Notes: generated by a model not told the origin, from the sequence alone. A DNA stretch of 64,000 bases from Parachlamydiaceae bacterium (GCA_037147435.1 JBAWVE010000001.1:464-64463), one strand, 5' to 3'; shown: positions 1,926-8,099, numbered from the stretch's first letter. Translations and numbers: made by a program.

Positions 1926-4900
1926 ATGAATTTAATCAACAACAGTGAAGATAATCCACATATTTTACCCATGGGGCAACCTCCAGCAATTCGTTTGGGG
2001 AAGGACCCAAAGTCAAGGATTATACAAAAAGTTGTCCAGGGATGGATCTCTCATATCAATACAGAGTTTAATCAACAACACCCTCATTTTTCTGCGTCCG
2101 AATCTGCGCAACAATGCAAAATGACAATTGCCAGAATTCAGGCGCTAGTTCAAGCCCTTGCGACGGGCGGGGCCACTGGAAGAGACGAAGCACAAATTAA
2201 GGAACTCAGAGAACAGCTCTTTGCATTGCAAGTACCGCCGCATGAAAAACCGCAAGCGGAAGCCATTAGGTATGCCGAACGAGTTCTCGACGATGTCGCC
2301 CATTTTGCCCAGATGATTAAAGATTACCAAAAACTCACCCACACTTTAGAAGGGAAGTTGATCGCTCTAAGTGAACAATGCGCCAAGCCTCAAGGTGCTT
2401 TACTGATACCTCTTCCCCAATTATCTAATGTAGTTACGCATCTATCGAAAATGACTAACTATCTAAAAGATAACATTCCAAGAGCATCCTCTGAAACAAA
2501 GGTCTCATTTACCCAGATTGTGAAAGAGTTTTTTAAACCTTCGCACAAAGAAAACAAACAGCTTGTAGTCACAACATTAAGCTGTTTCGAAGAGGATGCT
2601 AGGCGCCAGCTAGATGGTGAGATGAGGACGTTAAAGAGATGCCTGCAAAACAAAAACCTTGATGTTGTGCAAAACGCCCTTAATGAACTAGATTCCCTCG
2701 AACGGCATCTCAGCAATCTATCTGAACAGTTCGAAACTCTTGAAATCCCGCAAGAAACATTGCATTCGTTCGAAGAGCTTAAAGAACACTATGATGACAC
2801 GATAAAAGAGATACAAGGATGTATAATATACGAAACACACTCTGATGGGGATGGTACTAGGACTGTGCCGTTAGAGATCACTGAACCGAACCTGGTGTAC
2901 GGTTCAGACGCGTGGAGAGAACTGACGTTAAGACGGCCAATACTAGAAAAAGGTATGCTCGCTAGAGTGTTCTCATGGCTCCACGAAAAAATTACGGAAC
3001 ACGCAGGTGTTTTATTGCCTGCGATGCAGTTATCTTCTTTAACAATTAAAACATTTGAAGAAATCTCTCAGGTAAGTTCGCAACTTAAAACCCAGAGAGA
3101 TACGTATGAGACTATACTCAAAGCACTTCAGGGTGAGCTATATAAGGGTTCCGAATTCATCCGTGCAAATATAGAGAACACAGACCTTACCGAAACAGCT
3201 CTTATCGGCAAAGTTCCAGCGGCGTATTTCCTTCAATTTAAGGAAGCTATAGATAAAAAAACAGACATCGGAAAAGCCGTCCAGGACTATGTAAACTGGA
3301 GAATTGAACAGGAGATGCCGAAAGCACGGTATGAGCGCTTCATCAAACTCGAAGAAGCAATGGAGCAAGGTAGAGAATCGACAACCGATGATACTGAATC
3401 ACGCGTCGAAAACGCCGCGTTAGGGCCGATAGCAGGCATGGGACAGATGGCAAAAGTATTGCATGATTTTAGAGGAGACTCTTCAACAGATCAAGGCGCC
3501 ATCCAAGCAGAAAGGGCAGCCGCTCATATGGCTGTGTTGAAAGCGTTGGATAAAACAGCCGATTTGCGACACAAGATAGAGGTTCTTCCCGAGTTACAAG
3601 AGCTCCGCGACACTGTGTATTTATTACAGAACGAATTAAGTAAGACTTCATGGAGTATCCCCCCTGAAACCTGTACCATAAACGAATTAGCATTATGGGA
3701 GCAGCATGAAGGAGATCTTTGCTATGCCGTGACCTCCTTAGAAGACCGGATACGGGTTCTTATGGAACAGGCTCGTCCGCATATGGCTATTAAAAGCCAT
3801 GAGGAGTTCGGCAAAAAATTCGATCATTTAATGAAGCAAGTCAGCCTCATGGAAGCTCTCCCGATCCCCGGAGTGGAAATTCCCGCCCCAGTTGGTATCA
3901 GCAACCAACAGATGCATGCTTTTATTACACATTATAGCCCTAAGGATTCTTCGACGAATTCCCCAATAGTATTTGAACGCTGGAATGAGCTGAGTACGCT
4001 TTACGCAAATGAACCCAATCATCAAACTTTCTTTGCCAATAAAAGAGTCCGAGAATGTTTTGCAGAGATAAATGCCGCTCTTGCCCAAATATTTGAAAAG
4101 GCTAGCACCGATGAAGATGCTTACCATGCCCTTGTGACGCCAGAGATCCGCACTTGGCTTGAAGAAAGATCGGTCGCTGGCGATCGACTGATGGTACGAA
4201 GCACAGGCGCCGAAGATGCGAGCGCTAAAGAGGAAGGGGGAAATACCGCAACTAATGCCGGGGGTAATGAGAGTATCGCTTATGTGGCTCCGACCCAGAG
4301 TGAGTTTTCTATTGCCCTTGGAAAGGTTGTCCGCTCCTATTTTGGCCTTGAATCATTGAAGAATCGTATCGCTGCTGATGAAAATCCGTTCGAGAGCTCC
4401 CTTAAGCTGCCTGTTCTTGCCCAAACATTAATTGGAGAACCCATCGGCGGAGCGACCAATCCGAACGCTATCCCTAGCTCCTTGGTTCTCTTTAGCAATG
4501 AACCCCTTTACATTGGCGAGGAGAAATTCCGCGTGATGCGAATTAGCGCCACATTTGGGCATGGCGAAGGTGTTGTCAAAGAAGGGGGAATTAAAAGTGA
4601 TACAGCTCTTATCTTAGTGTCTGAGGCCAGTCCGGACAGGCTTTATATCATCTATGACAACCAGTACAAGCCCTTTAGGTTAGCGCCGAAAAAAAACGGA
4701 GATCAGGTAACTTTAGAAATGATGGAAAATACCGGAAATTTAGCCCATCAGCGCGTGCTGAGTGATGCACTCATAGTTCGGTTATATACATGGGGCATTG
4801 TCGGAGAAAAATTCTTTGATGACCATCCAACAGATATGGAAATCGTCATCAAAAATGGGAAGATCTATCCTGTACAGGCTCGTGATGTAAAACGTCAGAA

Positions 4901-7900: not shown

Positions 7901-8099
7901 CATCAAAAATGCTCAAGAGGTAGAGGCGTTGCCTGATTTTAGAAATGTCGCTTTCCGGGCAGCTTATGATCTTCAGACATCTCCAGACCTTAACATTCGT
8001 AGCAAAGCAAATGAAATTCTGGAAACGTTATATAATAAATATGGACCTACATGGATGACGCAACAATCTCAAGCTAGGTCCTTCATTAGATTCCGATAG
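1926..8099 (+). CDS. Very large (2057 aa) multidomain protein with a coiled-coil-rich N-terminus, a central PEP-synthase/rifampin-phosphotransferase-like ATP-grasp (PPDK_N-like) plus PEP-utilizer phosphohistidine swivel domain, and HEAT/armadillo-like C-terminal repeats; candidate secreted effector
   Basis: Single uninterrupted ORF. ATP-grasp motifs are LMVRSTGAEDA...NAGGNESIAYV, ATFGHGEGVVKEGG and DMEIVIKNGKIYPVQARDV (about 4190-4880). The swivel-His motif is EPSNSHAVVNFSNMGVPCLF, with the His codon at 5130-5132. C-terminal repeats include DPIEYIRIVARQVLASLW, DRAIAMTALPLYGALVKHG and SPDLNIRSKANEILETLY. Confidence 0.85.
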   Translation: MNLINNSEDNPHILPMGQPPAIRLGKDPKSRIIQKVVQGWISHINTEFNQQHPHFSASESAQQCKMTIARIQALVQALATGGATGRDEAQIKELREQLFALQVPPHEKPQAEAIRYAERVLDDVAHFAQMIKDYQKLTHTLEGKLIALSEQCAKPQGALLIPLPQLSNVVTHLSKMTNYLKDNIPRASSETKVSFTQIVKEFFKPSHKENKQLVVTTLSCFEEDARRQLDGEMRTLKRCLQNKNLDVVQNALNELDSLERHLSNLSEQFETLEIPQETLHSFEELKEHYDDTIKEIQGCIIYETHSDGDGTRTVPLEITEPNLVYGSDAWRELTLRRPILEKGMLARVFSWLHEKITEHAGVLLPAMQLSSLTIKTFEEISQVSSQLKTQRDTYETILKALQGELYKGSEFIRANIENTDLTETALIGKVPAAYFLQFKEAIDKKTDIGKAVQDYVNWRIEQEMPKARYERFIKLEEAMEQGRESTTDDTESRVENAALGPIAGMGQMAKVLHDFRGDSSTDQGAIQAERAAAHMAVLKALDKTADLRHKIEVLPELQELRDTVYLLQNELSKTSWSIPPETCTINELALWEQHEGDLCYAVTSLEDRIRVLMEQARPHMAIKSHEEFGKKFDHLMKQVSLMEALPIPGVEIPAPVGISNQQMHAFITHYSPKDSSTNSPIVFERWNELSTLYANEPNHQTFFANKRVRECFAEINAALAQIFEKASTDEDAYHALVTPEIRTWLEERSVAGDRLMVRSTGAEDASAKEEGGNTATNAGGNESIAYVAPTQSEFSIALGKVVRSYFGLESLKNRIAADENPFESSLKLPVLAQTLIGEPIGGATNPNAIPSSLVLFSNEPLYIGEEKFRVMRISATFGHGEGVVKEGGIKSDTALILVSEASPDRLYIIYDNQYKPFRLAPKKNGDQVTLEMMENTGNLAHQRVLSDALIVRLYTWGIVGEKFFDDHPTDMEIVIKNGKIYPVQARDVKRQKLMPTYLDLSNVKELDSSPIVETKKGVVLIPGKASVVIANPGQIIEIETLLEALNLYNNDPEKYSAVIVRQPEPSNSHAVVNFSNMGVPCLFMERKQGIQEMLSGVTAEQQVVICMQTGKVNVWNKEVDITPFVKKGFAAHPATIVHSISVDPILRARTSPHTIPEDIFSLLEQLGDAVTTSVAAPIILKLKEKVGNIKTRVDDLEQLFANSRYPPPQARRALNDLKALKKEIDGAFDEAMANLKQPQVLGYQNFFYIKNLLTLLVDTPKQGSLGVYSALDVEKLYTHAQALIEYQNQVANPIRFGDILFTSEKAFDPAVAVQWKTFLLEAEKGATKRQEQQILELMKILDETDLTSNWFIMLFKPGSIESVLNTLPQNEVATVTKYTELAKDIREGKYSLDTLKDSSTLHTICKGIGRLVKESSVLTKSVIFQALKETVDFYDLSIKAMKMDHSMGTPAKVTEFRRMVGEFFSFLENLATEFAPIWTLSNTRMSDSFIGGFGSPQFKIGVAQNLFKSLTDTSSAQLNPSPEFSVSAAMISSDAVFERHYPLTIEDHFTWVHQGCVAIIANVENVLYTKVNTLSLPEPVKQGMMLFSSARIRAFRPQQVSFKSEGNILTIVYNIPLRNHAAKMTLKYDQYTQEVVVEGSLLGINRRGRWDNAKSYAEMLNALGIIKLNEPVYAGNQELKIIWKISALPPEEAYKTVLREFSAICLESINNDLGRFTEDYINSFIVCKREEALKVIHNEITSGIMTETGKQMTVKLWNPRRIKPEDIPLINEAANYGSVSWRNLALQIFIEAIPRSKDRKVLVPALQAALINIAHSDTNLRQKSLHLIQQSIGTLPEADTITSLIIERWRDPIEYIRIVARQVLASLWNRGKGVPEAIETVVRWEKENPGEQATTEILSLLIAKREGIEETLNIAISRATNPDRAIAMTALPLYGALVKHGQAIREAIDLIKRYSGTPFGSEQLEAIQGILSILRNPLTGFSKELLQMVDIVIKNAQEVEALPDFRNVAFRAAYDLQTSPDLNIRSKANEILETLYNKYGPTWMTQQSQARSFIRFR

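Follow-up and report, generated by a model that had tools for sequence, protein, structure and literature searches.

The analysed window is a stretch of 64,000 nucleotides, read on one strand, from a Parachlamydiaceae bacterium (GCA_037147435.1, JBAWVE010000001.1:464-64463), and it contains a complete open reading frame (ORF) at 1926-8099 that encodes a giant protein of 2057 amino acids (aa). A single uninterrupted reading frame is confirmed, as stated by a first-pass annotation made from the sequence alone, and the Chlamydiae-like origin proposed there agrees with the public record: a database protein search retrieves an entry (P0001) with 100% identity, named by NCBI 'MAG: PEP/pyruvate-binding domain-containing protein [Parachlamydiaceae bacterium]' (MAG, metagenome-assembled genome; PEP, phosphoenolpyruvate). 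Within the His-swivel dikinase superfamily, the protein is best assigned to a large subfamily that is new and whose substrate module is new as well. Its conserved unit is a core of ~1060 aa, composed of an ATP-grasp domain, a swivel domain, and a third domain of ~550 aa, and its ends are variable. The gene is organized as follows.

1926-8099, plus strand: complete ORF, 2057 aa
1926-3482, plus strand: variable N-terminal region of helix-rich composition (aa 1-519)
3483-3800, plus strand: conserved segment before the ATP-grasp domain (aa ~520-625)
3801-4940, plus strand: PPDK_N-type ATP-grasp nucleotide-binding domain (aa ~626-1005)
4221-4241, plus strand: insertion of seven residues, SAKEEGG (aa 766-772), separating the AED motif from NAGGN
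4941-5375, plus strand: divergent phospho-histidine swivel domain of the PEP-utilizer mobile type (aa ~1006-1150)
5130-5132, plus strand: CAC codon of His1069, the predicted phosphoryl-carrier histidine, in the motif NSH
5394-7010, plus strand: conserved third domain with no recognizable fold relative (aa ~1157-1695), the predicted acceptor-binding/phosphotransfer domain
7203-8045, plus strand: C-terminal alpha-solenoid (HEAT-like) repeats of ~36 aa each (aa ~1760-2040)

The ATP-grasp domain is identified by Pfam, by profile and structure searches, and by its invariant residues. Over aa 637-992, Pfam PPDK_N (PF01326) scores 49 bits, above its curated threshold of 27. The family profile retrieves rifampin phosphotransferase (RPH) of Listeria (5hv6, 5fbs, and 5hv1) and PEP synthases (PpsA; 8a8e, 9dae, and 2ols) from the PDB with E values from 6e-14 to 5e-8 (RPH and PpsA matches at 6e-14 to 4e-13), and pyruvate, phosphate dikinase (PPDK) much more weakly (E 0.06), whereas a single-sequence search of the core against the PDB gives no significant match. 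An AlphaFold2 model of the core (aa 621-1700), built on 64 sequences, reaches a mean predicted local distance difference test (pLDDT) score of 87.4 and a predicted template-modelling (pTM) score of 0.85, and a Foldseek search of the PDB with this model gives significant matches solely to RPH, PpsA, PPDK, and HpeI (E 2.7e-10 to 1e-5), led by RPH (E 2.7e-10) and PpsA (E 1.6e-9) and followed by PPDK (E 3e-8 and weaker). Across the 64 aligned sequences, the ATP-site motifs GxK, VRSxGxED, NAGG, GHGEG, DxE, and QxR show no variation, and G629, K631, R758, S759, G761, E763, D764, N777-A778-G779, G878 (in GHGEG), D970, E972, Q984, and R986 are invariant; we take K22, R92, D321, E323, Q335, and R337 of Clostridium symbiosum PPDK to be the counterparts of invariant ATP-site residues here. 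The four ATP-grasp motifs quoted in the first-pass annotation, MVRSTGAEDA (aa 756, nucleotide 4191), NAGGNES (aa 777), GHGEGVVKEGG (aa 878), and EIVIKNGKIYPVQARDV (aa 972), are all found where it had placed them, as are the fifth motif, in the swivel domain, and the histidine codon at 5130-5132, and the ATP-site residues and histidine whose absence it had considered are invariant across the family. The domain itself thus stands, but not its proposed start at nucleotide 4130, since the real start lies at aa ~626, just before the GxK motif (G629/K631). The insertion SAKEEGG occurs in this protein alone among the 64 aligned sequences, the other 63 having a gap, and the model has low confidence there (core residues 147-150, pLDDT <50).

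The swivel domain, of all the assignments the one least secured by sequence, follows directly on the ATP-grasp domain. It carries the motif EPSNSHAVVNFSNMGVPCLF at aa 1064-1083 and ends at a conserved linker motif, GFAxHPA (aa 1128-1134). His1069 is invariant in the 64 aligned sequences (as H449), and another 31 homologues of greater distance, among them proteins of Dependentiae, Coxiellaceae, and Legionella, keep the carrier histidine as well, with 94 relatives checked in all. A continuous hmmsearch alignment to the PEP synthase 8a8e runs with high posterior probabilities from the second half of the ATP-grasp domain through the swivel motif, pairing the family segment 'iVsqpepanSHpVVnFsslGiPcL' (anSHpVV) with TSHAAI of PpsA. 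With heuristic filters off, the best alignments of the family swivel profile fall on TCH421 of Escherichia coli PpsA, TSH189 of PtsI, and the TSH of FryA, at scores of ~0 bits. Distant relatives carry APSTSHEATTFRSEGKPV, which is nearer to the canonical swivel motif; a swivel-only profile of this distant branch finds exactly two PDB entries at E<=1, both PEP synthases (E 0.54 and 0.99), with its histidine on the catalytic histidine, and hhalign with the distant-branch profile selects residues 410-454 of PpsA, the H421 region, at a probability of 0.5%. The core model shows a strand, a loop, the histidine at a helix N-terminus, and then a strand, which is the topology expected of a swivel, and the Foldseek alignment with PpsA 2ols covers 506 columns, exceeding the ATP-grasp domain alone. 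On account of its position after the ATP-grasp domain, its structure, the weak but concordant alignments, and the invariant histidine, we conclude, in keeping with the first-pass assignment, that aa ~1006-1150 most probably form a real, though divergent, domain of the swivel type, whose position is that seen in PpsA and differs from RPH.

Between the swivel and the C-terminal repeats lies the third domain, which the first-pass annotation overlooked. The PEP/pyruvate TIM barrel that serves PpsA and PPDK as substrate domain is missing, as that annotation had noted: PEP-utilizers_C (PF02896) has no Pfam match at E<=1 anywhere in the 2057-aa protein, and both the core model and a stand-alone model predict, with high confidence, that the region after the swivel is all-helical apart from a small sheet. 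Modelled alone (pLDDT 89.8, pTM 0.87), the third domain consists of ~430 all-helical residues followed by a four- to five-strand sheet with two helices. Foldseek searches of PDB and BFVD with this domain return nothing with E <0.1, and when it is searched alone, no PpsA, PPDK, or RPH match appears. Its end, a sheet-plus-helix subdomain (aa ~1605-1695, window ~6738-7010), gives recurring weak Foldseek matches to protein-kinase and APH(3') domains over ~90 residues (probability up to 0.95, E ~0.3, TM-score ~0.1); these matches are not taken as evidence of a kinase fold, and kinase motifs are absent. The domain is nonetheless strongly conserved. W1315, D1435, K1439, D1547, H1553, Q1554, Y1613, N1614, H1620, and R1649 are invariant, W1650 is nearly so, and the recurring motifs are VDxYDxSIKxMK, LEDxFTLIHQN, YNxPLRNHS, and GxARxRW. 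A hidden Markov model of the domain detects it in 185 of the 189 collected homologues, the most distant included, and the four misses are truncated sequences; among these homologues, therefore, the third domain always accompanies the dikinase engine. A word-indexed search with a profile of the third domain alone returns nothing and carries no information. The earlier view, in which a scaffold for protein interaction had received a two-domain engine, consequently gives way, as the engine is always followed by a conserved domain with invariant polar residues of its own. Since this domain occupies the place of the substrate domain, the protein appears to be a complete three-domain enzyme in which only the outer ends vary, and position and conservation together mark the third domain as the predicted acceptor site.

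The same unit defines the family in sequence databases. An exhaustive search of 1.84 billion representatives (clusters at 50% identity) with aa 621-1700 as the query yields 994 matches; 825 reach E<=1e-10, and 371 reach E<=1e-30, so that at least 371 clusters share the core. Each of the best 150 has E <1e-106, and most of these span query positions 6-1067. A relative of 1591 aa (P0002) aligns over aa 628-1660. Because homology to P0002 and to the representative matches continues past the swivel, the core is taken to span all three domains. Overall identity of the aligned relatives to this protein is ~22-38%. The core alone is the effective query, as a full-length word-indexed search, whose candidate list fills up with low-complexity words from helices, finds no more than one relative besides the protein itself. 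In a scan of one genome per species across 185,579 species, the family occurs at 138 loci. Among the 80 of these 138 loci that were listed, counted by record titles, 39 carry Chlamydiota-type labels, 10 belong to Dependentiae, TM6, or Babeliaceae, one of them being the complete genome AP025250, 2 to Legionella or Coxiellaceae, 9 carry other labels and are possibly mis-binned, and 20 are unclassified. Up to five paralogues are present in one MAG. The named database matches are all Chlamydiota proteins from MAGs, labelled 'hypothetical' or 'PEP/pyruvate-binding', and no description of the family was found in the literature.

Both ends of the protein vary among relatives. The N-terminal region (aa 1-519) is weakly homologous (~22% identity) to that of some paralogues and has neither a Pfam match nor a PDB match by sequence, and the segment that follows it (aa ~520-625) shares 35-50% identity with many homologues. 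The first-pass annotation had described a coiled-coil N-terminus of ~750 aa, which the analysis does not support. Since the ATP-grasp domain starts at aa ~626, the extension measures ~520-620 aa, and a long coiled coil finds no support in the heptad signal, which is close to the control (10.6% of windows in a crude scan versus 6.5% in the enzyme core), in proline and glycine spacing (the longest run free of both is 43 aa), or in Pfam, which gives only insignificant coiled-coil matches in the protein. For the C-terminus, the HEAT/armadillo-like character assigned to ~350 aa survives in part. These residues have no Pfam HEAT match of their own, and a single-sequence PDB search with them returns nothing significant. 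However, the last ~350 aa align at several offsets with the ~36-aa repeats of paralogues, some of which carry Pfam HEAT repeats (PF02985/PF13646); the best copies here resemble LxxLVxKGQGxxEAI and those of the paralogues LFxxLVxKGQGxxEAI. A joint profile of the C-terminal repeats matches designed helical repeats and the HEAT proteins AP-3 delta and Integrator-4, and the whole-family profile matches AP-1/AP-2 beta in the PDB. The paralogue alignment and the joint-profile matches make 'alpha-solenoid/HEAT-like' an acceptable description. The ends of other relatives include HEAT-type repeats, DUF4116, Cnd1/TOG-like repeats, and, once, a phosphatase of the dual-specificity phosphatase (DSP) type, and Pfam searches of distant and very long homologues detect only PPDK_N and HEAT/TOG-like repeats.

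The phosphatase fusion is found in P0002 (L001 2090-6865, on a Logan SRR21686417 contig), where the three-domain core is joined to a C-terminal DSP-type phosphatase (PTP-SAK/Tc-R-P), and a stand-alone DSP-phosphatase gene lies two genes downstream (L001 7890-8843). The fusion and the nearby gene may represent a kinase/phosphatase pair acting on one substrate, and this single case hints at acceptors that are dephosphorylated by DSP enzymes, namely proteins, phosphoinositides, or glucans.

Comparison with known systems sets the protein apart from each of them. With PpsA (EC 2.7.9.2) it shares the succession of an N-terminal PPDK_N ATP-grasp and a predicted swivel, the conserved ATP-site motifs, and a carrier histidine that aligns with H421 of PpsA and with the TSH motif of 8a8e. 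It differs in having a third domain of ~550 aa instead of the TIM barrel, a swivel too divergent for PF00391, and extra sequence at the N-terminus (~600 aa) and the C-terminus (~360 aa). PPDK (EC 2.7.9.1) has the same ATP-grasp fold, but its sequence similarity is much weaker and its TIM barrel is likewise absent here. The lack of this barrel means that the protein is neither PpsA nor PPDK, and a canonical PpsA fused to extra domains is ruled out for the same reason. RPH (EC 2.7.9.6; 5hv1 and 5fbs) provides the best profile and Foldseek match for the ATP-grasp domain, and it is a dikinase with a third domain for a substrate that is not pyruvate, as is predicted here. The order of domains in RPH is ATP-grasp, rifampin-binding domain, and C-terminal swivel, whereas in the present protein the swivel directly follows the ATP-grasp and the third domain alone finds no RPH match; as both the order of domains and the third domain differ, the protein is not RPH, and an RPH orthologue is ruled out. 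Glucan, water dikinase (GWD) and PWD (EC 2.7.9.4/5), compared by description, resemble it as large multidomain dikinases with PPDK_N, a carrier histidine, and a non-pyruvate polymer acceptor, but their domain order is reversed, and GWD has carbohydrate-binding modules, none of which is detected here. Enzyme I of the phosphotransferase system (PtsI) has a swivel-type His domain, and its TSH189 aligns with the SH motif of the family, but Enzyme I lacks an ATP-grasp domain and is charged by PEP via a TIM barrel, not by ATP. Enzyme I is the precedent in the superfamily for phosphate transfer from the swivel histidine to a protein (HPr).

In PpsA, PPDK, RPH, and GWD, the swivel histidine attacks the beta-phosphate of ATP, yielding pyrophosphoryl-His and AMP, the gamma-phosphate passes to water or inorganic phosphate, and the swivel domain ferries the phosphohistidine to the substrate domain. 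By analogy, we infer a comparable cycle for the giant protein. ATP would bind to the ATP-grasp domain, and His1069 on the swivel would take up the beta-phosphate via a pyrophosphoryl-His intermediate; AMP would be released and the gamma-phosphate passed to water or inorganic phosphate. The swivel would then rotate and pass its phosphate on to an acceptor bound in the third domain, which would stand in for the PEP/pyruvate TIM barrel and supply Asp, Lys, His, Gln, His, and Arg residues that are invariant. Both the N-terminal region, which varies, and the repeats at the C-terminus would be accessory, probably serving in targeting or protein binding. The strict conservation of the ATP-site residues and of the carrier histidine at ~22-38% identity argues for retained catalysis. 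Judged from these sequence features, the protein is probably a new type of phosphotransferase whose target is possibly in the host.

We consider it probable, though by no means certain, that the gene encodes a self-contained three-domain His-swivel dikinase with a family-specific acceptor domain, that the acceptor is a molecule of the protist host, and that the protein is a translocated effector. The analysis itself shows the order of domains, the conserved catalytic residues, the missing TIM barrel, a third domain without a recognizable fold relative, and the phyletic pattern; catalysis, the direction of transfer, the function of the third domain, secretion, and the host target are deductions. 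A host acceptor and translocation are suggested by the expansion of the family in environmental Chlamydiota, with several paralogues per genome, by its sharing with Dependentiae, Coxiellaceae, and Legionella, by its near restriction to protist-associated intracellular lineages of different phyla, by the swappable ends that could serve in targeting, and by the fact that it has no operon partners. Such a phyletic pattern is characteristic of effector families; neither a conserved chaperone-like neighbour nor a Sec signal is found, and secretion and a host target are plausible. Several observations weigh against this interpretation. The swivel fails every stand-alone significance test: PF00391 matches neither the whole protein nor 20 isolated swivel segments of the family, the swivel-only profile of the family retrieves nothing from the PDB, hhalign of the swivel with E. 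coli PpsA falls on the wrong region (probability 1.8%), and the distant-branch profile reaches just E 0.5-1. The acceptor-site role of the third domain is read from position and conservation alone, and the giant gene is placed among housekeeping genes (ThyX, RpoN, and ClpB). Some loci carry labels of non-intracellular groups (Myxococcaceae, Verrucomicrobia, and Planctomycetes), through either mis-binning or a wider distribution, and no cultured chlamydia or member of the Chlamydiaceae is found among the named matches, so that the chlamydial way of life may not in itself depend on the family.

The main rival is an enzyme of the same chemistry that remains in the cytoplasm, namely a His-relay kinase for a bacterial or imported small molecule, either a xenobiotic or antibiotic, as for RPH, or a phenolic compound, as for phenylphosphate synthase/HpeI. 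The closest structures are indeed small-molecule dikinases (RPH, PpsA, and HpeI), the acceptors known for ATP-driven members of the superfamily are hydroxyls of small molecules or glucans, the genomic context is of the housekeeping type, and no secretion signal is detectable, although type III secretion signals are beyond the methods used. Several divergent paralogues per genome, hypervariable ends, and alpha-solenoid repeats would, however, be unusual for a metabolic or resistance enzyme; a cytoplasmic small-molecule kinase would also have to be reconciled with the absence of operon partners, with a distribution centred on obligate intracellular lineages of unrelated phyla and not on free-living bacteria, and with a third domain unlike the rifampin-binding domain of RPH. 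We regard a cytoplasmic role as rather unlikely, though it deserves serious consideration.

Two further explanations are much less probable. In one, which we judge to be a distant prospect, the third domain would bind a glycogen- or starch-like glucan of the host, as an analogue of GWD, or a lipid headgroup, and the enzyme would be functionally paired with dual-specificity phosphatases. The arrangement in P0002, with a fused DSP-type phosphatase and another DSP phosphatase encoded by the next-but-one downstream gene, would fit such a pairing, GWD is the one polymer-acting dikinase known in the superfamily and its action is reversed by DSP phosphatases (SEX4 and laforin), and CX5R/DSP-type phosphatases also act on phosphoinositides. 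The fusion is seen just once, however, neither Pfam nor Foldseek detects a carbohydrate- or lipid-binding domain, and the order of domains is opposite to that of GWD, in which the His domain precedes the nucleotide domain. The other, which we find the least credible of all, is a catalytically dead scaffold or pseudoenzyme whose module binds nucleotide or is merely structural and whose function is protein-protein interaction via the repeats. A highly divergent swivel that fails PF00391 and the large helical extensions could be read in this way, but the ATP-site residues and the carrier histidine are strictly invariant, the latter even in other phyla, a pattern characteristic of catalysis that has been retained, and it is the enzyme core that is conserved and the extensions that vary.

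The surroundings of the gene include two further features.

1761-1790, plus strand: sigma-70-type promoter-like site TTGACA-18-GATAAT, a consensus match only (11/12), with the ATG 136 nucleotides downstream
8236-9117, plus strand: ORF of 293 aa without a Pfam match, 137 nucleotides downstream of the giant gene, with a hydrophobic stretch in its second half by eye (not scored)

The intergenic stretch upstream of the giant gene is very AT-rich, with a GC content of 19% at 1700-1925 versus 43% across the window. The first-pass annotation was correct on this point and on the presence of the promoter-like site; promoter-like sites in the upstream region are not enriched (10 found versus 15 expected from shuffles), and the site is accordingly graded as a plausible promoter and no more. 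No signal peptide or transmembrane segment is evident in the 2057-aa protein (maximum 19-residue hydropathy 1.39), and no second copy of the gene was found within the window. Its neighbours are ThyX, upstream on the opposite strand, the 293-aa ORF, RpoN, ClpB, and Lpd. None of these neighbours, the 293-aa ORF included, was found beside homologues of the gene, and no ORF family recurs next to it across the 80 listed loci.

Elsewhere in the window, an McsB-like ATP:guanido phosphotransferase gene (23834-24916) adjoins a UVR-motif McsA-like ORF (24903-25478), both on the minus strand, with ClpB (15018-17612, plus strand) ~6 kb away, and the McsB/McsA-like pair together with ClpB looks like a protein-arginine-kinase quality-control module. 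A methylcitrate-cycle cluster (27120-30590, plus strand) encodes a PrpB-like PEP-mutase/methylisocitrate lyase, a PrpC of the citrate synthase family, and PrpD, and downstream of it lie a TetR regulator and a 2-oxoacid dehydrogenase E1/E2 operon (31633-35081). A 526-aa ORF (35044-36624, plus strand) matches Peptidase_S10, a serine carboxypeptidase family, with E 6e-17; this family is mostly eukaryotic, and the ORF may be a eukaryote-like gene in a chlamydial MAG. A phage-type integrase (37244-38326) is followed by ORFs without an assigned family and by a DUF927 protein (40084-41922), and the cumulative GC skew falls to a minimum at ~36 kb and rises thereafter. The region 37244-41922 and the turn in skew could reflect a mobile element that has integrated, a strand switch connected with replication, or the two together.

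The acceptors known to us for His-swivel dikinases are few (pyruvate, rifampin, glucans, and phenols). Tentatively, and with less confidence than we place in the effector reading itself, the family could represent the first bacterial effectors driven by an ATP-grasp and swivel of the PPDK/PpsA type, which would transfer the beta-phosphate of ATP to a macromolecule of the host (protein, lipid, or glucan) via a previously unseen acceptor domain of ~550 aa; such a class would have spread horizontally across three or more phyla of bacteria that infect protists (Chlamydiota, Dependentiae, and Legionellales) and diversified by swappable targeting ends. The database label 'PEP/pyruvate-binding' is in any case misleading for these proteins, and even with a bacterial target, the third domain would give the superfamily a substrate module that is new to it. 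Should the acceptor belong to the host, the family would represent a new effector chemistry, the transfer of the beta-phosphate of ATP via phosphohistidine, and would mark a conserved catalytic site (His1069, together with D1435, K1439, H1553, and H1620) in environmental chlamydiae, Dependentiae, and Legionellales.

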